From Thermoplasmata archaeon (GTDB lineage Archaea > Thermoplasmatota > E2 > JACPAO01 > JAHFTW01), in the NCBI GenBank assembly GCA_034667725.1, contig JAXDQS010000003.1:448001-512000 (forward strand): a stretch of DNA of 64,000 nucleotides, read 5' to 3'. A program made the translations under genes and the position numbers. Below, piece by piece: positions 33,152-54,034 of this stretch. How positions within the stretch are numbered: the first letter of the stretch is position 1; the number at the start of each line of letters is the position of its first letter. Under the pieces are notes generated by a model. It did no database searches, had not been told where the DNA came from, and saw only the letters and a program-made list of their open reading frames with translations.

Positions 33152-33277
33152 AAGGGAGGATGCCGTGGTGGGATGAAAAAACACGCCGGCATGGGTCGGG
33201 ATTGCCGTGCTTCCACCCGTCTCTGCCCAGGAAACCTAAGCCCGACCCCTGCATCCCCGCCCGCCCAGGTGAGCCAG

Positions 33278-33568
33278 ATGGCCACGTACCGCATCGAGTG
33301 CACCCATTGCCGCGAGACCAGCTTCATGACGACCCGCCCGCCCACCCCCGTCGGCGGCGACCGCGTCGTCCCCCGCCCCGCCCTGCGCTGCTGCCCCTGC
33401 TGCGGCCGCAGCGACCGGATGCGGGTCTTCGTCCAGGCGCGCCGGCCGGCGGACTACCACGACCACGTCCGCAGCGTCTGGCACGCCGACCGCCTGCCCA
33501 TCCCCGGCCAGGCCTGGCGGCGCATCCAGCAAGACATCCAGCGCTCGACGCCGCCGGTGGCGAAGTAG
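33278..33568 (+). CDS. Small Zn-finger protein (CPxCG-like)
   Basis: AGGTGA SD; CTHC and CCPCCG motifs. Confidence 0.6.
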   Translation: MATYRIECTHCRETSFMTTRPPTPVGGDRVVPRPALRCCPCCGRSDRMRVFVQARRPADYHDHVRSVWHADRLPIPGQAWRRIQQDIQRSTPPVAK

Positions 33569-33673: not shown

Positions 33674-34825
33674 GTGCGGGTCCTCCTAGGCATCGCCCTC
33701 TGCGCCCTTCTTGCCACCACGCCGGCCGCCGCCGACGTCGCCAGCCTCCTGCACCCCGAGTCCCCCCTCGGCCCCGTGCTTGAGAGCCATGCCGGCGCCG
33801 GCGTCCGCTCCTTCGGGCCCACGCACTCTCCCGTCGGCAGCGGCTTCGGCGGCTTCGGCGGCGGCAGCCCCAGCATCAACTACAGCCAGCCGTGCCCGGT
33901 CGGCCTGACCTTCAACGGCCCCAGCTCCCTGCCCTGCATGTTCGTCCCGACAGTTCCCGGCCCCGTCGTGCCGCCGCCCGGGCTGCTGATCGCTCCCATC
34001 AAGTCCACCGAGCCCGAGGTCGAGCCGCAAGCCCCCCGCGACGAGGTGGACGGCGGCCGCGACGCCGCCGCGGACGAGGCCACCGCCGTCGCCCCGCCCC
34101 AGGACGCCATGAGCGCCCGCGGCGCCGGCGACGCCACCCCCGCCCCGCTCCCGCCGCCCCGCCCCACGGGCCTCGCCGCCGCCCTCGCGCTGGCCGGCCC
34201 CGCCCTGCCCGTCGCCGGCTGGCTCGCCGCCCTGCTGCTGGCGGGCGGCGCCCTCGTCGCCATCCTGCTGGCCCGCCGCCGCGCCGGCCTGCCCTTGCTG
34301 CCGCTCGGCCAGAAGAACGGCCGCGCCCGCGCCACGGTGCGCGACGCCGTCCTCGAAGCCGTCCGCGCCAACCCCGGCATCCACAAGCAAGGCCTGGTGC
34401 GCCACCTCGGCCGCAGCAACGGCACCATCGAGCACCACCTCGACCGCCTCGTGGCCGCCGGCGAGGTCGTCCTGGTGCGCCGCAACGGCTACAACTGCCA
34501 CTTCGCCGCCGCCGGCGTCGACCGCCGCATCATGGGGGCCGCCGCCGTCCTCAAGTCGGAGACCGCCCGCAGCCTCCTCCAGGCCGTCGCCGCCACCCCC
34601 GGCCTGGGCCTCACCGTCGCGGCCCGCGCCCTCGGCGCCTCGGTCTCCACCATCCACTACCACCTCGGCCGCCTCGCGGAGGCCGGCCTCGTGCAGGTCC
34701 ACGCCGCCGGCTCCGCCCGCCACGTCCACCCCACTCCGCTGGCCCACCAGGCCCTGGCCACGTGGGCCGGCGCCGCCCCGGCGTCGGACGCCGGCAGCCA
34801 GGCGCCCAGCCTTGCCACCACCTGA
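33674..34825 (+). CDS. Signal peptide, Pro-rich ectodomain, TM helix, tandem winged-HTH regulator
   Basis: N-terminal signal; TM ending LARRR; VRANPGIH..GTIEHHLDRL and VAATPGL..STIHYHLGRLAEAGLV. Confidence 0.8.
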   Translation: MRVLLGIALCALLATTPAAADVASLLHPESPLGPVLESHAGAGVRSFGPTHSPVGSGFGGFGGGSPSINYSQPCPVGLTFNGPSSLPCMFVPTVPGPVVPPPGLLIAPIKSTEPEVEPQAPRDEVDGGRDAAADEATAVAPPQDAMSARGAGDATPAPLPPPRPTGLAAALALAGPALPVAGWLAALLLAGGALVAILLARRRAGLPLLPLGQKNGRARATVRDAVLEAVRANPGIHKQGLVRHLGRSNGTIEHHLDRLVAAGEVVLVRRNGYNCHFAAAGVDRRIMGAAAVLKSETARSLLQAVAATPGLGLTVAARALGASVSTIHYHLGRLAEAGLVQVHAAGSARHVHPTPLAHQALATWAGAAPASDAGSQAPSLATT

Positions 34826-34857: not shown

Positions 34858-35052
34858 ATGGGCATCCTCGACATGTTCCGCGGCAAGAAGGCCGCCGCCA
34901 GCCAAGACCCCGTCTGCCACATGCAGGTCACGCCCGCCAAGGCCGCCGGCACGGCCACCCACGGCGGCACCACCTACCTGTTCTGCTCCGCCGGCTGCAA
35001 GGCCAAGTTCGAGAACGACCCGCACGCCTACCTCGGGGCGCACGCGCACTAA
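34858..35052 (+). CDS. YHS-domain protein
   Basis: DPVCHM...YLFCSAGCKAKFENDP. Confidence 0.85.
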   Translation: MGILDMFRGKKAAASQDPVCHMQVTPAKAAGTATHGGTTYLFCSAGCKAKFENDPHAYLGAHAH

Positions 35053-46424: not shown

Positions 46425-46886
46425 ATGCCCGCCAAGAAGGCGACGCCGGCCAAGGGCGCCACCACCCGCGTCTCCGGCGAGGGCTACACCACGGCCTCGA
46501 CCTTCAGCCCGCGCATGGCCGCCGCGTGGAAAGAGCTCGACGCCGCCGTCCGCCGCGTGTTCCCCAAGGCCGAGCCGGTGTTCGACTACGGCGTGCGGGG
46601 CTGGCGGGTGCCGCGCCCCCTCAAGGTCGAGGCGTGGAAGGGCACGATGGACCCCAACTGGCTGACCCTCTACCTGGCGGAGCGGGCGCAGGGCATCACG
46701 CTGCACTTCTGGAACCCGTGCGAGCCCGGCTTCCTCAAGCGCAAGGGCCCGGAGCTGGCGCCGCACGGGCTCAAGGCGATGGTGGGCTGCCTGCAGTTCA
46801 CGCGCAAGGGGGACTATCCCGTGCCGGTCATCGAGGGGTTGCTGCGCGAGGCGCGGGGCCAGATGGAGTCCGAGGCGCCGCGGTAG
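46425..46886 (+). CDS. Hypothetical protein (DUF1801-like)
   Basis: ELDAAVRRVFP, YG..GW, LA..AQGITLHF, MVGCLQF; CTCAAG box 29 nt upstream. Confidence 0.65.
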   Translation: MPAKKATPAKGATTRVSGEGYTTASTFSPRMAAAWKELDAAVRRVFPKAEPVFDYGVRGWRVPRPLKVEAWKGTMDPNWLTLYLAERAQGITLHFWNPCEPGFLKRKGPELAPHGLKAMVGCLQFTRKGDYPVPVIEGLLREARGQMESEAPR

Positions 46887-47237
46887 CTACACCGCGCCGA
46901 CCAGCGCCAGCACCGAGAGCAGGTTCCACACCACGACCGCCATCGAGACGCAGCCCACCACCAGCAGGCCCCAGTGCGCAGCACCGCCGCGGCCCATCGC
47001 GACCTGGCGGCCGGCGACGGCGAGGATCAGCAGCAGCCCCGCCAGCTTCGCGGCCAGGAGCGCCTCGTAGCCGTGCGCCACCAGGACGCCGGCGAGGGGG
47101 CCCAGCTCGATGGCGCCCTGCTCCAGCGCCCACGCGGTCGTGAGGACGTCGAGGTACCAGAGGCAGCCGATGGCGAGCCCCGCGATGGCGAGGCCAGCCC
47201 GCTCTGGGGCAGGCAGGTGGAGAGACTGAGTGCGCAT
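46887..47237 (-). CDS. Small membrane protein (DUF5658-like)
   Basis: LDVLTT..AL..GAIELGPL, AKL, VVVWNL. Confidence 0.75.
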   Translation of the reverse strand: MRTQSLHLPAPERAGLAIAGLAIGCLWYLDVLTTAWALEQGAIELGPLAGVLVAHGYEALLAAKLAGLLLILAVAGRQVAMGRGGAAHWGLLVVGCVSMAVVVWNLLSVLALVGAV

Positions 47238-47298: not shown

Positions 47299-49224
47299 CT
47301 AGGGCGCGGGCGTCACCCGGAAGGCCGCGAGCGGGGCGCCGCGCAGCTCGACCAGGCCGACGCCGGACAGCCTGCGCAGGTGGTAGACGGTGGCGCCGTA
47401 GCTGGTCTCCAGGCGGCGCGCCGCCTCCACGACGGTGATGCCGGGCTCCTGGTGCAGCAGCGCCTCCAGCCGGCACGCCAGGTCGGTCTTCAACAGGCCG
47501 TCCGTGGGGCACGCGGGCGCGGAGGCCAGGTAGACGCAGACGTAGCGGCCGGCCTTGCGCTGCCGCACCAGCCCCGCGCGCTCCAGCACTTGGAGGTGGT
47601 GCTGCAAGGCGCCGCGGCCGCACCCCGCCAGCCGGGCCAGCTCGTTGAAGTGGATGCCTGGCGCCGCCGCGAGGTGGGCGAGGATGCGCGCCCGGGTCGG
47701 CTGGTCGGCAACACTTTGCCCGCCCAGCCGCGAGAACAGCCCGACCGCCGCGGCCGGCACCGTGCGCCACAGCGCCCAAAGCGGGAACACGGCCACCCCC
47801 AGCCCGGCCAGGAGCGGATGCGGCGGCGCGACGCCGGCCAGCGGTGGCGGCGCGGGCGCGGCCGGCGGCGCGACGCGCGGCGTAGCCGTCCTCGCCACCG
47901 GCAGGGGCGAGCACGCGTCGCCCGGCCCGGCGCCGTCGAGGTCGGCCTGGTCGGCGTTGGGCGTGTCCGGGCAATTGTCGGGGAACGCGGCGACCCCCTG
48001 CTGCGCGATGCCGTCGCCGTCGCGGTCGGCGTCGCAGGCGTCGCCTTGCCGGTCGAGGTCGAGGTCCTGCTGCGCGGCGTTGGGCTCGGCGGGGCAGTTG
48101 TCGGCCTCGTCCTGGACGCCGTCGCGGTCGCTGTCGCGCACGGGCTTGGCCACCGCCGGAAGGATCAGGCTCGACGGGGCCGCGGGGACCACGGGCGCCT
48201 CGACGCAGGCCTCCGGATGCAGCACGCAGCCCTCCAGGCGGGGCGCGACGGGCTCGTGGTGCGGCGGCAGCAACGGGGCGACCGGCGACGGCGCCGACGG
48301 GCACAGGCCCGCGGCCGGCGCGAGGCATTCGGCGATGCCGTCGAACCGGAGCCGCCAGAACGCCTGGCCGTCCCACGACAGCAGCGCGGGCACCGGGTCG
48401 AACTGGCCGGGCAGGAAGGTGTACTGCCGCGTCGTCGCGTTGTAGCGCAGCAGGTTGAGGCGGTCGAAGCTCCAATGCTCGTAGGCCAGCAGGGCGCCCT
48501 CGTCGCGGGCGGTCTGCACCAGCCGGCCGCCGACCCGGTCGATGGGCAGCCACGCCGGCGTCGCCGTGCCCGGCAGCTCCTCGAAGGCGGCGCCGTCGTA
48601 GGCCAGCATGGCGTGGCCGCCGCCGGACAGGAACGCAAGCACGTGCGCCGTGGCGCCGTCCCAGATGAGGCCGCGGGCCGCGAGGAACCGCGGCGGCGCA
48701 GGGCTCGCGGGCCGGAACGCGTCGGCCGCGGCGTCGTACTGCTGCGGCGGCGCCGCCAGCGCGGCGGGCACCAGCGTCAGGCCGTTGGCGGTGGCGAAGT
48801 GCGACGGCCGCGCGTCGCCGCCCCACGGCGCCGGCGGCGCGGCAGGGCTCGCGGCGCGCGCCGCAACACAGCCGCACGACTCGCGCCACAGCAGCGCGGG
48901 CGCGCCGGGCGTGACCACGAGGAGCTCGCCGGGCGCCACGACGTGGACCGTGCCGAGGCCGGCGGCCGCGGGCAGCCGCGCGAGGCGTTCACTCGTGCCG
49001 GCGGCCGGCAGGTAGCGCTCCAGCGTGGCGTCGCCGTGGCCGTCGCAGGCTGCGCGGACGTAGTAGAACGCGCCGGCCATCCATTGGCCGTCGGCGCAGT
49101 CGTCGGGCGCGAGGCCGACGCGGCCGGTGGCTTGCACGGCCCAGACGCCGTCCGATTGCGCGTCCGCGGCCGCCACCAGCGGCACCGCGAACGCCAGCAA
49201 CAGCAGCCAAGCCCGTCCCGCCAC
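47299..49224 (-). CDS. Signal peptide, beta-rich ectodomain, thrombospondin type-3 repeats, TM helix, tandem winged HTH
   Basis: DSDRDGVQDEADNCP..N..Q.D.D.D..GDAC repeats; GLFSRL; PGIHFNEL..LQHHLQVLE; EPGITVVE..TVYHLRRL. Confidence 0.85.
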   Translation of the reverse strand: MAGRAWLLLLAFAVPLVAAADAQSDGVWAVQATGRVGLAPDDCADGQWMAGAFYYVRAACDGHGDATLERYLPAAGTSERLARLPAAAGLGTVHVVAPGELLVVTPGAPALLWRESCGCVAARAASPAAPPAPWGGDARPSHFATANGLTLVPAALAAPPQQYDAAADAFRPASPAPPRFLAARGLIWDGATAHVLAFLSGGGHAMLAYDGAAFEELPGTATPAWLPIDRVGGRLVQTARDEGALLAYEHWSFDRLNLLRYNATTRQYTFLPGQFDPVPALLSWDGQAFWRLRFDGIAECLAPAAGLCPSAPSPVAPLLPPHHEPVAPRLEGCVLHPEACVEAPVVPAAPSSLILPAVAKPVRDSDRDGVQDEADNCPAEPNAAQQDLDLDRQGDACDADRDGDGIAQQGVAAFPDNCPDTPNADQADLDGAGPGDACSPLPVARTATPRVAPPAAPAPPPLAGVAPPHPLLAGLGVAVFPLWALWRTVPAAAVGLFSRLGGQSVADQPTRARILAHLAAAPGIHFNELARLAGCGRGALQHHLQVLERAGLVRQRKAGRYVCVYLASAPACPTDGLLKTDLACRLEALLHQEPGITVVEAARRLETSYGATVYHLRRLSGVGLVELRGAPLAAFRVTPAP

Positions 49225-49318
49225 GGCCGTCTTGATCGGTCGCGGGAATAAAGGAATGGTGGGACGGTCCCTTAGCAAGCCTCAAGCAGAAAGGCTGCCT
49301 TTCCTGGGGTCGCGTCGC

Positions 49319-49345
49319 GGAAAAGAGAAGGAGGAGGGGAGGAGG
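49319..49345 (-). terminator. Pyrimidine-rich tract, putative terminator
   Basis: CCTCCTCCCCTCCTCCTTCTCTTTTCC on the minus strand just after the stop at 49350. Confidence 0.4.
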
Positions 49346-49349
49346 TCCG

Positions 49350-49634
49350 TCAATAGCAGATGGTGGCTGGAATCGTGGTCCTGATGCACGGGCCGTTCAG
49401 GCCTTCGCAGCTTCCGTCCGGGCACACGCCTTGGCACCGCTCGAGCGAGTTCTGGTTTGAACAGACCCCGACGCAGAGTTGGTAGCCGCTCGAATGAGGT
49501 CCGTAACTTCCAATGCACGAGCTGGTCGTGACGACAGCCGCCCCCGCCGTCGCGCTACCGCTGAACGCCAGCAAAGCCAGCACCAAGCTCGTCGCGCCCA
49601 GAAGCGCGCAGATTTTCGTGTTCATGGGGTTCAT
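49350..49634 (-). CDS. Small secreted Cys-rich peptide (8 Cys in the mature part)
   Basis: Signal MN(PMN)TKICALL...SATA, then C-x13-C-x3-C-x8-C-x3-C-x4-C-x6-C-x9-C. Confidence 0.7.
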   Translation of the reverse strand: MNPMNTKICALLGATSLVLALLAFSGSATAGAAVVTTSSCIGSYGPHSSGYQLCVGVCSNQNSLERCQGVCPDGSCEGLNGPCIRTTIPATICY

Positions 49635-49701
49635 CCCAACCGCTTCGGCTGGGCTTCGCCGGACCCGCTTAGGCACATATGCCGCTTTTGGCTGATCGTG
49701 G

Positions 49702-50961
49702 CTATTGCGGCTGGAGAATTTCCTTGGACGCGTCGATGGACGTCGGAAGCGCAAACTCAGGGGCCGGCTGCATCCTCGCCTTCGCCACCTTGGCCTTGTG
49801 CTGCAGGTCATCGATCGCGTTCATGTGGTTGATGAACGCCATGTAGGGCGAGTCGTAGGGGCTGAAGTAGGCGTGGATGTCGCCGTCGCCCATCCCCTTC
49901 GTGCAGGAGTAGTACAGGTGGTCGCTGGTCTGGAGGCGGCGCCACGCGTGCACCAGGTCCGCGTCGCCGGTGGCGTGGACGTCCCAGGCCATGTTCTTGA
50001 GGCGCTCGAAGCAGAGCTGCTGCATCCGGTTGCCAAGCCAGCCGCTGACGTCGCGCTCGGTGTCGGCCCACGAGATGGCGTGCGGGACCTGCAGTTCGTC
50101 GCGCGCCTCGTGGCGGCCGGCGACCTCGCTCGGGGTGGCGAACCGGAGGTGGGGGTGCTTGAGCACCTCGCCCGGCAAGTGCTCCAGGAACTGGAAGATG
50201 CCGGTCTCGGGCCATTGGTGCTCGCCGAAGGTCTCGTAGTCCATGAACAGGTTGACGGTGTCGCCCTGGGCCTGGGACAGCCAGTCGGCGAACTTGTCGG
50301 CGGTGAGGGGGAAGCCGGCCCAGCCGTGGTTGCTGAAGCGGAACGCGACGTCGTCGCTGAGGCGGTAGTTCTTCAGCAGCACCTTGAGGCCGTCGACGCC
50401 GGCGGGGCGGTAGAGGACGTTGGGGCTGCGGCTGCCGAGGATGCGCTCGGTGCCTTCGGTGAGCATCGCCTTCCACCCCATGCCGGCAACAGTGCGCGCG
50501 ATGCGGTCGTCGTACACCAGCTCGGTGTTGCGGAACACGGTGGGCTGGACGCCGAGGTGGCGTTGCAGCGCGGCGGAGTGGGCCTGGACCTGGGCCTTGA
50601 ACTCGGCCTGGTCGTCCCACAGCGAGGCCATCGAGTGGTAGTAGGTCTCGCCGAGGAACTCGACCTGGCCGGAGTCGGCGAGGTCCACGAACGACTGCAG
50701 CACGTCGGGGCGCTCGTCGGCGATCTGCTCCAGGAACACGCCGCTCAGGGAGTAGGAGGCGCGGAAGGCGCCGTCGGTCTTGCGCACCATCTCCAGGACC
50801 TGCTGGTTGGCGGGCAGGTAGCACTTGCGGCTGGCGCGGTCCAGAATCTCGCGGTTCTTGGCGCGGTCCCAGTAGTCCAGGCCCTTCGGGGCGTCGAACG
50901 ACTGGATGCGGCGCAGGCGGTGCGGCTGGTGGACCTGGAAGTAGAAGCAGACGTCGGTCAT
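49702..50961 (-). CDS. Glycoside hydrolase family 57 (alpha-amylase type)
   Basis: FQVHQP, ETYYHS, FRNTEL, LSDDVAFRF, MDYETFGEH, SWADTERD, LQTSDHLYY. Confidence 0.95.
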   Translation of the reverse strand: MTDVCFYFQVHQPHRLRRIQSFDAPKGLDYWDRAKNREILDRASRKCYLPANQQVLEMVRKTDGAFRASYSLSGVFLEQIADERPDVLQSFVDLADSGQVEFLGETYYHSMASLWDDQAEFKAQVQAHSAALQRHLGVQPTVFRNTELVYDDRIARTVAGMGWKAMLTEGTERILGSRSPNVLYRPAGVDGLKVLLKNYRLSDDVAFRFSNHGWAGFPLTADKFADWLSQAQGDTVNLFMDYETFGEHQWPETGIFQFLEHLPGEVLKHPHLRFATPSEVAGRHEARDELQVPHAISWADTERDVSGWLGNRMQQLCFERLKNMAWDVHATGDADLVHAWRRLQTSDHLYYSCTKGMGDGDIHAYFSPYDSPYMAFINHMNAIDDLQHKAKVAKARMQPAPEFALPTSIDASKEILQPQ

Positions 50962-52151
50962 TGGGTTTGGTCTCCTCGAAGGTTTCGGGCGGATCGGTAG
51001 ACGGCGAGGGTCTTGGCGCAGGACTTGTCCCAGGTGAACGAGCGGGCCTCGCGGGCGCCGTTGCGGCCGAGCTCCTCGCGCAGCTCGGGGGAGTCGAGGA
51101 GGCGGACGATCTGGTCGGCCATCTCGTCGGTGTCCCAGTACTCGGCCCGGAGCACGTGCTTGAGCGCCTCGCCGACGCCGCAGGTGCGGCTCACGATGGT
51201 CGGCAGGCCCGTGGCCATGGCCTCCAGGACGCTGATGCCGAACGGCTCGCTGACGCTGGGCAGGACGTAGACCTCGTGGCTTTCGTAGAACGCGGCCTGC
51301 TGCTCCATGTCCACGAAGCCCGTGAAGCGGACGTTGTCGGCGATGCCCTGGTCGAAGGCGTACTCGATGCACTCGCCCAGCATCTCGCCCTTGCCGGCCA
51401 CCACGAAGCGGGTGCCCGGGCGGACCTCCAGCACGCGCTTGGCGGCCTTGAGGAAGTAGAGCGGGCCCTTCTGGCGGCTCAGGCGCGACAGGAACAGCAC
51501 CGAGCCGCGGCCGTCGTGGTAGTCGCGGTCCATGCCGGGCTTGAACTTGGAGAAGTCGACGCCGTTGTGGACCGCGACCACCTTCGAGGGGTCGGCGCCG
51601 TAGGCCTTCTCGACCAGGCCCTTGGTGTAGCGGCTGACGGCGATGACGCGGTCGGCGCCGGCGACCCCGCGCCGCTCGATGTCCTCGATCCACGCCTGCG
51701 GCATGAAGCCGGCGCTGCGGTCGTGCTCGATGCTGTGCACCGTGAACACGAGCGGGATGCCGGTGCGGCGCCGCAGCTCGAGGGCGGCGGGCACGGTGAT
51801 CCAGTCGTGGCAGTGCAGCACGTCGGCGTCGAACGACTTGAACGCGTCCACCAGCCGTTCGTTGTAGAGCATGACGGCGGCGTTGAAGTTCTGCTCGTAG
51901 CGGCGCCCCTTGTCGCGGGTGGAGCCGCCGTAGGGGTCGATGGGCTCGGCCTCGACCTCGACGATGTTGAGGTGGCCGTGGTGGTCCGCGACCCGCAGGC
52001 CGTCGGCCATGGAGGGCATGTGCGGCATGTAGAAGTCGAGCTGGACGCCGATGCGGGCGAGCCCTTGGGTGAGCTCCAGGCAATGGATGCCTAGCCCGCC
52101 TGCCATGAACGGCGGAAACTCCCAGCCCAGCATCGCGACCTTCATGGGCAT
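50958..52151 (-). CDS. GT4 glycosyltransferase (putative glycogen synthase)
   Basis: MLGWEFPP..GGLG, HCHDW, QKGP, PSVSEPFGI; overlaps both neighbours. Confidence 0.92.
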   Translation of the reverse strand: MPMKVAMLGWEFPPFMAGGLGIHCLELTQGLARIGVQLDFYMPHMPSMADGLRVADHHGHLNIVEVEAEPIDPYGGSTRDKGRRYEQNFNAAVMLYNERLVDAFKSFDADVLHCHDWITVPAALELRRRTGIPLVFTVHSIEHDRSAGFMPQAWIEDIERRGVAGADRVIAVSRYTKGLVEKAYGADPSKVVAVHNGVDFSKFKPGMDRDYHDGRGSVLFLSRLSRQKGPLYFLKAAKRVLEVRPGTRFVVAGKGEMLGECIEYAFDQGIADNVRFTGFVDMEQQAAFYESHEVYVLPSVSEPFGISVLEAMATGLPTIVSRTCGVGEALKHVLRAEYWDTDEMADQIVRLLDSPELREELGRNGAREARSFTWDKSCAKTLAVYRSARNLRGDQTQ

Positions 52152-54034
52152 CAACGCGTCACAGGGATGCCGGTGGCGGTGGTGGCGCGCACCGGGCGGC
52201 GGGAGTAGGCGTTGACCGTCTCGACGAAGGTGGAGTGGCTCCAGACGAGCGGCGTGACGCTGGTGTGCTGGCCGGTGCGGGCGTCGACCTGCTCGGGCAG
52301 CAGGTCGGTCGGGGAGGCCTGCTTGGCGCACCACTCGATGAGCTCGCGCGCCCGGTCGGCGTTGCCGAGGCGGAGGTGGCACTGGGCCAGCCAGAGGGTG
52401 CAGATAATCCAGGCGTTCTCCTTGCCGTAGTAGACGTCGCCTTCGTAGCGCGCGATGCCGCCGGTGGCCTTGACCCAGAGGCGGTCCTCCACGGCCTTGA
52501 CGACCTGGGCGAAGCGCGGGTCGGTGGTGGGCACGAGGTCCATCAGAAGCGCCAGCAGCGAGGCGGCGTCGATGGTCTCGTCGCGCGGCTCGATCGACTT
52601 GACGAAGGCGTTGCGGCCGGGGTGCCAGAGCTTGGCGAGCGCGGCCTGGTGCATCCGGTGGGCGGCCTCGTTCCAGAAGTCGCTGCGCTTGGCGAGCGCC
52701 TTGCCGATGGTGGCGGCGGCCCGGAGGCCGCGGATGGTGGCGGCGACACTGTAGACGTTGATGGCCTTCTTCTCCTCCCACAGGTCGAAGGTCGGCAGCG
52801 GCAGGCCGTCGGGGCCGGCGTAGCGCATCAGGAAGTCGGCCGCGCCGCGCACCAAGGGCCACGACACCAGCAGCTGGTCGAGGTCGCCGGAGGCCTCGTA
52901 CTCCGCAAGGACGGCGTCCACGACGCTGGCGGTCTGGTCGATCTGCAGGAACGGCGGCGGGTGCCAGGTGGAGCCGAGGTTGCCGTCGGGGAGGTGGCGG
53001 TGCAGGAAGCTGCCGTCGTCCTCCTGGCAGCGCGCCGCCAGGCCGAGGAAGGCTTGCGCGTTGCGGCGCAGCCCGACCTCGCTCATGGCGCGGCTGATGT
53101 AGGCGCCGTCGCGCCACCAGCAGTAGTTGTAGGTGTCGCCGCCCGACTTCAGGGTCCGCGAGTCGGGGCTGGCGATGACGGCGCCGTCGAACGCCTGGCA
53201 TTCGCGCATGACGTAGAGGCTGCGGCGGTACACGGCGCGGGCGCGGGGCGACAGGTCGCCGGCCAGCTCGGGGACGCGGTTGCGGGCCCAGTGGTTGCCG
53301 AAGCCGACGGTCTCGGCGGTGTAGAGCTGCGGGTCGCGGTCGGCGACGTGGCGCTGGAACTCGTTGCTCTCGCGCCGGCTGCCGGCCAAGAGGACCATGA
53401 GGTGCAGGACGCGCTCCTGGCCGCCGGGCAGCTCGACGTTCCACTGCACCACCGAGTCGGCGGCGCCGTGGCTGATGCGGTTGCCCTGGAGCTTGCCGTC
53501 CTCGGCGTCGACGTAGCTGCCGGCGAGGCCCTTGAGGGTGTGCTCGCCGCACGAGACGTCGTCGAAGTCGGGGCGGCCCATCACCTGGAACCAGGTGTCG
53601 CCCTTGTAGTGGGTGACGGAGCGGCGCTCGGCGTCCCAGTACGCGGTGCCTTGGTACAGGGTGCCGCCGATGTTGAGGCTCTGGTAGTGGAACACCCGGA
53701 GCCGGCGCGGCTTGTCGCCCGGGTTCCGGACCGTGATGCGGCGGATGATGAGGTCCAGGTTCGGGTGGACCATGTCGTCGAGCGTGATGTGGACCCCGAG
53801 GCGCTGCAGCCGGGTGCGGGTGGCCCCCGACTCCTCCAGGTAGCCCATCTCCAGCGGCGCCTCGCCGCCTTGGTCCACCCAGCTGAACGAGTCGGTGTCG
53901 GCGTCGAACAGGCCGACGCGGGCCTGCTGGAGCTGCTGGTGCAGGCCGGGGCGCGGGTAGTAGAGCTGGGCCCAGCTGCCCCGTTCGTCGACGGTGAGCA
54001 GGATGCGGGAGTTGCCGGAGGTGAGGGAGATCAT
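52151..54034 (-). CDS. Glycoside hydrolase family 15 (glucoamylase-like)
   Basis: YNYCWWRDG, QIDQT, DLWEE, GIARYEGD, LPEQV, PLVWSH. Confidence 0.95.
   Translation of the reverse strand: MISLTSGNSRILLTVDERGSWAQLYYPRPGLHQQLQQARVGLFDADTDSFSWVDQGGEAPLEMGYLEESGATRTRLQRLGVHITLDDMVHPNLDLIIRRITVRNPGDKPRRLRVFHYQSLNIGGTLYQGTAYWDAERRSVTHYKGDTWFQVMGRPDFDDVSCGEHTLKGLAGSYVDAEDGKLQGNRISHGAADSVVQWNVELPGGQERVLHLMVLLAGSRRESNEFQRHVADRDPQLYTAETVGFGNHWARNRVPELAGDLSPRARAVYRRSLYVMRECQAFDGAVIASPDSRTLKSGGDTYNYCWWRDGAYISRAMSEVGLRRNAQAFLGLAARCQEDDGSFLHRHLPDGNLGSTWHPPPFLQIDQTASVVDAVLAEYEASGDLDQLLVSWPLVRGAADFLMRYAGPDGLPLPTFDLWEEKKAINVYSVAATIRGLRAAATIGKALAKRSDFWNEAAHRMHQAALAKLWHPGRNAFVKSIEPRDETIDAASLLALLMDLVPTTDPRFAQVVKAVEDRLWVKATGGIARYEGDVYYGKENAWIICTLWLAQCHLRLGNADRARELIEWCAKQASPTDLLPEQVDARTGQHTSVTPLVWSHSTFVETVNAYSRRPVRATTATGIPVTR

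Follow-up and report, generated by a model that had tools for sequence, protein, structure and literature searches.

Is a small secreted protein encoded directly upstream of a membrane-bound regulator the signal that this regulator perceives? The question is raised by two genes at 47299-49634 of a 64,000-nucleotide (nt) stretch of DNA from a Thermoplasmata archaeon (hereafter the window), which corresponds to contig C3:448001-512000 of the genome G000 (2.32 Mb, 26 contigs, 90% complete, ~71% GC). The first gene encodes a cysteine (Cys)-rich peptide. The second encodes a protein with an ectodomain, a putative transmembrane (TM) segment and two winged helix-turn-helix (wHTH) domains, hereafter the receptor. 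A first-pass annotation had read the two genes either as a ligand and its single-chain receptor/transcription factor, or as an antimicrobial peptide with its regulator and an immunity protein. The present analysis leads to a different reading, which we hold with somewhat better than even confidence: the peptide would be an independently transcribed, recently acquired, disulfide-rich secreted protein, and the receptor would be an incidental neighbour that senses something else. The pairing is missing in the closest relatives of the receptor, so a chance neighbour is likelier than a proven signal-receptor pair.

The adjacency of the two genes is not conserved. Orthologues of the receptor were found in two related genomes, G004 and G005. 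The G005 orthologue (P0010) is 41% identical to the receptor over the full length (ectodomain ~31-33%, cytoplasmic part ~53%), and the G004 orthologue comprises 741 amino acids (aa), its best match in G000 being P0002. Both are encoded 66-70 nt downstream of grpE (Pfam GrpE, E ~1e-25) in a local gene order common to the two genomes. Neither a small Cys-rich open reading frame (ORF) nor a DUF5658 gene, which follows the receptor gene in G000, was found near them. The grpE gene of G000, in contrast, lies on contig C2 with no regulator behind it. The receptor gene has therefore moved in one of the two lineages. A dedicated peptide-receptor pair should be inherited together; the peptide, however, was found neither with the G004 and G005 orthologues nor in a six-frame profile search of 197 genomes of the class, and a six-frame search of 40 relatives likewise gave no homologue.

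Within G000, whose genes were called with a codon-likelihood model trained on G000 itself (2176 genes, coding density 90%), none of the 14 paralogous membrane regulators has a peptide of this kind beside it. Small Cys-rich secreted proteins were defined as ORFs of 45-160 aa with a signal-peptide-like N-terminus, at least six Cys and at least 7% Cys in the mature part. Fifteen such ORFs lie outside other genes in G000; 14 show native codon usage (scores 32-95), the peptide being the sole exception. Only the peptide gene adjoins a membrane regulator, while the next nearest lies at 3.1 kb, so that none of the other 14 is within 3 kb of one. Since 30 of the 2176 genes flank a regulator, chance alone would give 0.21 adjacencies for 15 proteins, and at least one with a probability of 0.19. 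Small Cys-rich ORFs are not enriched beside membrane regulators in G000; the enrichment that the first-pass annotation proposed to look for was not found. The adjacency was largely unrepeated in paralogues and relatives, an outcome that the same annotation had named as speaking against the pair. The other 14 small secreted proteins contain 6-12 Cys, and several are encoded in adjacent pairs (e.g. C1:161398-162176, C3:70528-71076, C1:235189-236068). Judged from these sequences, the G000 repertoire of disulfide-rich exported mini-proteins appears unusually rich.

The features of the locus, in the reading direction of the two genes, are as follows (basis in brackets).

52151-54034, minus strand: GH15 glucoamylase-like gene (gene call)
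50958-52154, minus strand: GT4/GT5 glycogen-synthase-like gene (gene call)
49702-50961, minus strand: GH57 gene (Pfam GH57)
49702-49780, minus strand: final ~25 codons of the GH57 gene, a C-terminal tail that is not conserved (profile of GC at third codon positions, GC3; end of homology)
49350-49634, minus strand: peptide gene for a 94-aa precursor, stop included (translation)
49545-49634, minus strand: predicted signal peptide of the precursor (translation)
49353-49544, minus strand: predicted mature 64-aa protein with eight Cys (translation)
49225-49349, minus strand: 125-nt spacer between the peptide and receptor genes (GTG start at 49224)
49319-49328, minus strand: T-run TCTCTTTTCC in the spacer (sequence)
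49289-49303, minus strand: 15-bp palindrome GAAAGG-CAG-CCTTTC in the spacer (sequence)
49247-49252, minus strand: TATA-like TTTATT in the spacer, beginning at -28 from the receptor GTG (sequence)
47299-49224, minus strand: receptor gene, 641 aa, GTG start (Pfam, NCBIfam)
49159-49224, minus strand: predicted signal peptide of the receptor, residues 19-40 (hydropathy, coordinates)
~48244-49158, minus strand: putative Kelch-like all-beta ectodomain of the receptor (prediction, repeat motifs)
~47911-48135, minus strand: TSP3 repeats of the receptor, residues 382-456 (Pfam)
~47760-47814, minus strand: Pro-rich stalk and putative TM segment of the receptor (hydropathy)
~47524-47706, minus strand: first wHTH domain of the receptor, residues ~525-585 (Pfam, NCBIfam)
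~47311-47484, minus strand: second wHTH domain of the receptor, residues ~599-656 (Pfam, NCBIfam)
46887-47237, minus strand: DUF5658 gene, 116 aa (Pfam PF18902)
46425-46886, plus strand: DUF1801 gene, convergent with the DUF5658 gene

The peptide, receptor and DUF5658 genes are co-oriented on the minus strand. Directly upstream of the peptide gene, the GH15, GT4/GT5 glycogen-synthase-like and GH57 genes (49702-54034) make up a glycogen-metabolism cluster. A GT4 gene lies past the DUF1801 gene, on the far side from the DUF5658 gene.

The peptide precursor begins with a Lys-containing n-region followed by a hydrophobic core; cleavage at the motif A-T-A would leave a mature part of 64 aa. Its eight Cys are spaced C-x13-C-x3-C-x8-C-x3-C-x4-C-x6-C-x9-C and include CVGVC and CQGVC, in agreement with the secreted peptide with two C-x-G-V-C repeats that the first-pass annotation had described. 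The mature peptide is slightly acidic, with two Lys and Arg residues against three Asp and Glu residues. The peptide frame is the sole open one of the six in this interval and by far the best-scoring by codon log-likelihood. The database call of the gene uses a later start, the TTG at residue 17 (78 aa), which would leave a short signal peptide of 14 residues. An AT box is found at ~-31 from the TTG, and none was found at -30 from the first ATG. We nevertheless favoured the first ATG, because the N-terminus that it gives, M-N-P-M-N-T-K, resembles those of two other secreted proteins of G000 (M-K-P-M-N-T-T and M-N-R-M-N-P-T).

An exhaustive HMMER search with the mature part against 1.84 billion cluster representatives gave P0006 (139 aa, E 3.6e-6) as the sole convincing homologue, and it was the only one found among ~15 billion proteins. 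P0006 has its own signal peptide, its first six Cys are spaced identically to those of the peptide, and the core CVGVCSNQ-x4-RC-x-GVC-x-DGSC is invariant between the two. Over the 37 aligned core codons the DNA identity is 58%, and 8 of the 20 identical residues are encoded by different codons (for Ser, for example, AGC versus TCC). The conservation between the peptide and P0006 is therefore at the protein level, and by this mark the peptide gene is real. It probably encodes a Sec-exported 64-aa protein with four disulfide bonds. No further homologues were found in a word-indexed search of 5.8 billion clusters with either a single sequence or a profile, and pattern scans of contigs from metagenomes and genomes added no confirmed member. 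The peptide matched no Pfam or NCBIfam model (TIGRFAM models included) at E up to 1; PADLOC gave no family match for it and only generic wHTH matches. The two-member family is new, extremely rare and outside the described families. An AlphaFold2 model of the peptide from a two-row alignment (predicted local distance difference test score, pLDDT, 48.8) was too poor for a fold search.

Three further, weak matches of the HMMER search, P0007, P0008 and P0009, were rejected as homologues, being repeat proteins that match short stretches only. P0007 (291 aa; L053:194-1069, on a 2.3-kb ENA metagenome contig) contains four copies of a unit like N-C-I-E-S-Y-R-x-H-S-N-G-Y-C-Y-G-V. This unit resembles the first Cys loop of the peptide, C-I-G-S-Y-G-P-H-S-S-G-Y-Q-L-C-V-G-V, which may reflect a shared disulfide-loop motif or coincidence; the short contig offered no informative gene neighbourhood.

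The composition of the peptide gene differs from that of its surroundings. Its GC content is 62% versus 77% in the receptor gene, and its GC3 0.79 versus 0.95, which bears out the lower GC noted at first pass. Its codon log-likelihood is -5.9, or -0.06 per codon, while the 1st percentile of called genes is 0.146. Along the strand, GC3 is ~1.0 in the GH57 gene up to codon ~390, 0.8 in the GH57 tail, 0.64-0.88 in the peptide gene and 0.88-1.0 in the receptor gene. Homology of GH57 to the proteins of congeners stops at residue 391-406 of 419, and the congeners are without the tail. The stretch of atypical composition thus comprises the GH57 tail and the peptide gene, ~550 bp in all (~49225-49780). 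The contig that carries P0006 has a GC content of 61%, close to that of the peptide gene. These facts suggest that the ~550-bp segment looks acquired, probably recently. No convincing direct or inverted repeats, as signs of a mobile element, were found flanking it. None of the four congeners examined has the same genes downstream of GH57, and synteny therefore cannot date the insertion.

Signals in the spacer would separate the two genes. Its length is exactly 125 nt when the receptor starts at the GTG at 49224, as the first-pass annotation had it, and in the reading direction it contains the T-run, then the palindrome and then TTTATT. The pattern GAAAGG-N(2-3)-CCTTTC occurs twice in the 2.3-Mb genome (49289-49303 and C4:62336-62349), where ~0.05 copies are expected. 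Both copies are intergenic, past the 3' end of a gene and beside a T-run. The C4 copy, with a gene's 3' end before it and a T-run after it, looks like a terminator. By its position, the palindrome in the spacer is probably a terminator hairpin, and possibly an operator. In the upstream regions of G000, AT content peaks at -31 to -25 from the start codons and is lowest at -23 to -15, and a hexamer with at least five A/T of six starting at -33 to -27 is present in 23% of upstream regions versus 6-10% at control positions. This profile indicates that G000 has mostly leaderless mRNAs with a TATA box. A scan for bacterial sigma-70 promoters and intrinsic terminators gave nothing, a scan unsuited to archaea.

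No AT-rich box was found in the 61-nt gap between the receptor and DUF5658 genes, and the DUF5658 gene is therefore probably co-transcribed with the receptor gene. On these motifs, the peptide gene would form a transcription unit by itself, and the receptor and DUF5658 genes a second one. The DUF5658 product matches PF18902 with 26.8 bits (cut-off 25.2) over 78 of 82 profile positions, so that the assignment made at first pass is retained; it is a small membrane protein of 116 aa with three hydrophobic segments. The gene is a single copy in G000 and shows native codon usage; in G004 and G005, its orthologues and those of the receptor are on different contigs. A search of the literature found no paper naming DUF5658.

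The receptor is, as judged from its sequence, a type-I transmembrane one-component transcription regulator. Its ORF extends over 47299-49278 with a TTG start, but the GTG at 49224 is the likelier start; the product from this GTG, 641 aa, is identical to the database protein P0005. TSP_3 (PF02412) matches in two stretches (E 1.2e-10, 41.3 bits against a cut-off of 25), and residues 382-456 contain D-x-D-x-D-G-x-x-D-x-x-D-x-C motifs. HTH_20 (E 3.7e-17) and HTH_HVO_0163_N (E 6.3e-17), both from Pfam, also match in two stretches each. The ArsR/SmtB metalloregulator model NF033788 scores 53.6 bits, below its NCBIfam threshold of 55. The wHTH fold is thus predicted to be ArsR-like, and this score does not support membership in the metal-sensing subfamily. 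The putative TM segment (~488-506) lies between the Pro-rich stalk and the first wHTH domain; its hydropathy maximum is only 1.6 (19-residue window, residues 489-507) and it contains an Arg at 505. In an alignment, paralogues and the orthologue show a clearer TM helix at the equivalent position. The layout proposed at first pass, a beta-rich ectodomain, TSP3 repeats, a TM helix and two wHTH domains in a single chain, was confirmed with a signal peptide in addition, except that the TM helix is a moderately hydrophobic candidate segment.

The ectodomain, of ~300 residues, is predicted to be all-beta. It shows three clear Y-D/N...P motifs, spaced ~50 residues and reminiscent of Kelch repeats; a fourth, weaker one was seen by eye. 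The top Foldseek matches of an AlphaFold2 model from a two-row alignment (pLDDT 47.4) were six-bladed Kelch propellers with E ~1e-5, at TM-scores of only ~0.31. The best sequence match in the PDB was a Kelch domain at a non-significant E of 0.62, and Pfam Kelch models gave no match at E up to 1. With a poor model and a non-significant PDB match, the label of a Kelch-like propeller is therefore reasonable but unproven. In the database of 5.8 billion clusters, the only homologue of the ectodomain found was the protein itself.

These features suggest how the locus may work. After cleavage of its signal peptide, the receptor would expose a Kelch-like propeller outside the cell on a Ca-binding TSP3/proline stalk, and cross the membrane once to place two tandem ArsR/HVO_0163-type winged helices in the cytoplasm. 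The tandem wHTH domains would serve as a pseudo-dimer within one chain and bind DNA either at the membrane or once released. The peptide gene would be a recent arrival, brought in on a short segment of foreign composition, with a transcript of its own.

The receptor belongs to a large family. The module of a TM segment and tandem wHTH domains was found in ~15 proteins of G000, behind mutually unrelated ectodomains and mostly with a signal peptide. Of 41 related genomes, 36 gave matches to it, from 1 to 43 per genome and from 4 to 43 within the order; most of the matches are in ORFs of ~700-900 aa. A 2023 census by Demey et al. reported membrane-bound regulators to be widespread in archaea, with ~4 per genome on average (PMC10269533). 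The ~15 of G000 therefore point to a lineage expansion. HVO_0163 turned up in the literature in one unrelated acetylome paper only. The closest paralogues of the receptor in G000 are TSP3-type regulators at C3:421771-430683, where two divergent membrane regulators of this type lie with a soluble tandem-wHTH gene and genes for secreted proteins with 12-14 Cys. In the congeners G004 (C5:372078-378727) and G008 (C1:172652-185376), matches to the module lie within a few kb of each other, which suggests tandem arrays of membrane regulators. Inside the window, a paralogous membrane regulator (33674-34825) is flanked by genes at 33269-33568 and 34858-35052. These neighbours encode a 99-aa, 6-Cys protein without a signal peptide, which is zinc-ribbon-like, and a 64-aa protein that is YHS/TRASH-like by eye; there are hints here of metal sensing by this regulator.

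The most serious alternative is a functional link, in which the peptide would be a diffusible ligand of the ectodomain or a secreted output controlled by the receptor, and the locus would be a fused-receptor counterpart of three-gene cassettes found elsewhere in G000. We consider this unlikely. The peptide gene points the same way as the receptor gene, 125 nt from it, and the rare 15-bp palindrome between them could be an operator. The context of P0006 is also relevant. Its gene lies on a 1.6-kb metagenome contig, where its stop is 155 nt from the stop of a convergent gene for a 170-aa tandem-wHTH protein, which is preceded by a gene with a TPR-like C-terminus. The latter two genes match a cassette that is present four times in G000 (C10:163769-165984, C10:172144-174284, C3:659811-661888 and C1:119481-121911). 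Each cassette encodes a protein of ~460 aa with a signal peptide, an ectodomain and a TPR-like tail, followed by an overlapping gene for a soluble tandem-wHTH protein. In all four, a co-oriented gene for a small secreted Cys-loop protein lies 3-42 nt upstream, and these small proteins end in a two-Cys loop, C-x(~18-22)-C.

Three fused regulators also have a co-oriented upstream gene (C1:360892-363158, C1:265565-267768 and C4:14742-17002; ~245-268 aa, gap -25 to 65 nt). The three upstream products have a single Cys near the C-terminus (C-E-S-P-L-P-S, C-E-E-P-L-P and C-L-E-A-A), and they may form a conserved partner subfamily. With the four cassettes and the three fused regulators, secreted partners of sensor/wHTH modules are therefore a real theme of this lineage.

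Several points thus weigh against the receptor being an incidental neighbour. The habit of placing genes for secreted Cys proteins upstream of sensor/wHTH modules raises the prior for a link between the peptide and the receptor. P0006, the only other member of the family, adjoins a tandem-wHTH cassette as well; with ~1.6% of genes being of the tandem-wHTH type, the probability of such a neighbour by chance is ~0.03, for a single case and on the assumption of a similar gene density. The orthologue ectodomains are only 31-33% identical to that of the receptor, so that the orthologues could have different ligands. The promoter and terminator assignments around the receptor are made from sequence motifs only, and the enrichment of the AT box is modest.

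The comparison with the cassettes, however, also shows the differences. The peptide locus resembles them in that a gene for a small exported Cys protein lies upstream of a receptor with a signal peptide, an ectodomain and a TM segment, and in that the tandem wHTH domains are of the same superfamily. In the cassettes, the genes are 3-42 nt apart or overlap, whereas the peptide locus has a 125-nt gap with terminator-like and promoter-like signals of its own. Receptor and regulator are separate proteins in the cassettes but are fused here. The small cassette proteins end in a two-Cys hairpin, whereas the peptide lacks this hairpin and has eight Cys in an unrelated pattern. The adjacency at the peptide locus is unconserved in the receptor orthologues: the peptide is absent beside those of G004 and G005, as it is beside the 14 paralogues. 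On the P0006 contig, moreover, P0006 stands at the 3' end of the cassette with the wHTH gene convergent, which is not the position of a partner or ligand gene. The second copy of the palindrome, past a gene's 3' end, is terminator-like. A complex prediction for the ectodomain and the mature peptide scored 0.00 with an uncertain fold of the partner, and bears on binding neither way. The ligand-receptor pair proposed at first pass is thus unsupported by orthologues, paralogues and the 197 genomes; the position of P0006 beside a sensor/tandem-wHTH cassette keeps it from outright refutation.

The idea can be taken one step further. Members of the CVGVCSNQ...RC.GVC.DGSC family would then be archaeal signals that diffuse, or secreted effectors under regulation, in either case connected to membrane-sensor/tandem-wHTH modules, the locus would be the fused-receptor version of the kinase-free units of this lineage, and peptides and ectodomains would form strain-specific pairs as in kin recognition. 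We regard this as quite unlikely. To our knowledge, peptide-based cell-cell signalling is undescribed in archaea, and a genuine archaeal pair of a secreted peptide and a receptor-regulator would be valuable, if true. The present locus is weak evidence for such a pair, because its adjacency is species-specific and statistically unremarkable. The three-gene cassettes are stronger candidates for archaeal transmembrane signalling, and the locus may serve as a negative control for these better-conserved units. With the receptor read as an incidental neighbour, the locus still documents a predicted type-I tandem-wHTH membrane regulator with a Kelch-like/TSP3 ectodomain, whose family is strongly expanded in these Thermoplasmatota, and adds a new, very rare family of disulfide-rich secreted proteins.

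The second proposal of the first-pass annotation, an archaeocin-type module, would make the peptide a disulfide-stabilised antimicrobial that is regulated by the receptor, with immunity given by the DUF5658 protein. In its favour, the peptide is a small secreted Cys-rich protein with a patchy distribution and a foreign composition, features that horizontally moving conflict genes usually show, and a small membrane protein with three hydrophobic segments is encoded after the receptor. In the case of halocin C8, a regulator gene, halR, lies directly beside halC8 (bioRxiv 10.64898/2026.07.27.741052). The peptide, however, has no NCBIfam match at E up to 1 and no PADLOC match, and its mature part is slightly acidic. 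Next to the locus lie the glycogen-metabolism genes and the DUF1801 gene, and none for transport or processing. DUF5658 has native codon usage, and since G004 and G005 have orthologues of it but gave no match to the peptide, it is not tied to the peptide. This proposal is thus unsupported, and we consider it highly unlikely. Finally, a spurious peptide ORF, open by chance within a low-GC spacer, is hardly credible: its codon-usage score falls under the 1st percentile of called genes and the canonical AT box is missing at -30 from the first ATG, but it is the sole open frame of six, has a complete signal peptide, and shares six identically spaced Cys and an invariant core with P0006, from a different genomic background, with synonymous differences in 8 of 20 residues.

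The locus can be compared with known systems. Like the peptide locus, the halocin C8 locus of haloarchaea combines a Cys-rich secreted peptide of ~70 aa with an adjoining regulator gene. Halocin C8 and its immunity protein are both released from one 283-aa precursor exported by the Tat route, and genes for an ABC transporter follow (bioRxiv 10.64898/2026.07.27.741052). The peptide, in contrast, has a Sec-type signal peptide and no adjacent transporters, and the models of halocin C8 (TIGR04449) and its precursor (PF22862) were not matched in the NCBIfam and Pfam searches at E up to 1.

Among archaeal regulators, ArnR and ArnR1 of Sulfolobus are membrane-bound transcription factors (PMC6396743). 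They and the receptor are alike as archaeal transcription regulators anchored in the membrane. ArnR, however, has its HTH at the N-terminus and its TM helices at the C-terminus, and is not known to have a large outer domain or a secreted partner.

The transmembrane transcription regulators (TTRs) are defined by a predicted DNA-binding domain and at least one TM region (PMC10269533). The receptor has the DNA-binding domain (HTH_20, HTH_HVO_0163_N), and would fall within this definition if the TM segment is accepted. TTRs such as ToxR, TcpP and CadC resemble the receptor as one-component proteins in which a DNA-binding domain and a sensor-like outer domain are joined by a single membrane pass, putative in the case of the receptor. 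In ToxR and CadC, the DNA-binding domain is N-terminal. The predicted topology of the receptor is inverted, with the N-terminus outside via a cleaved signal peptide and the DNA-binding part C-terminal. It would also carry two ArsR/HVO_0163-type winged helices in tandem, whereas ToxR, TcpP and CadC carry one OmpR-type domain. Its outer part, a putative Kelch-like propeller on TSP3 repeats, is likewise unlike those of ToxR, TcpP and CadC, and the receptor is one of a family with ~15 copies in G000.

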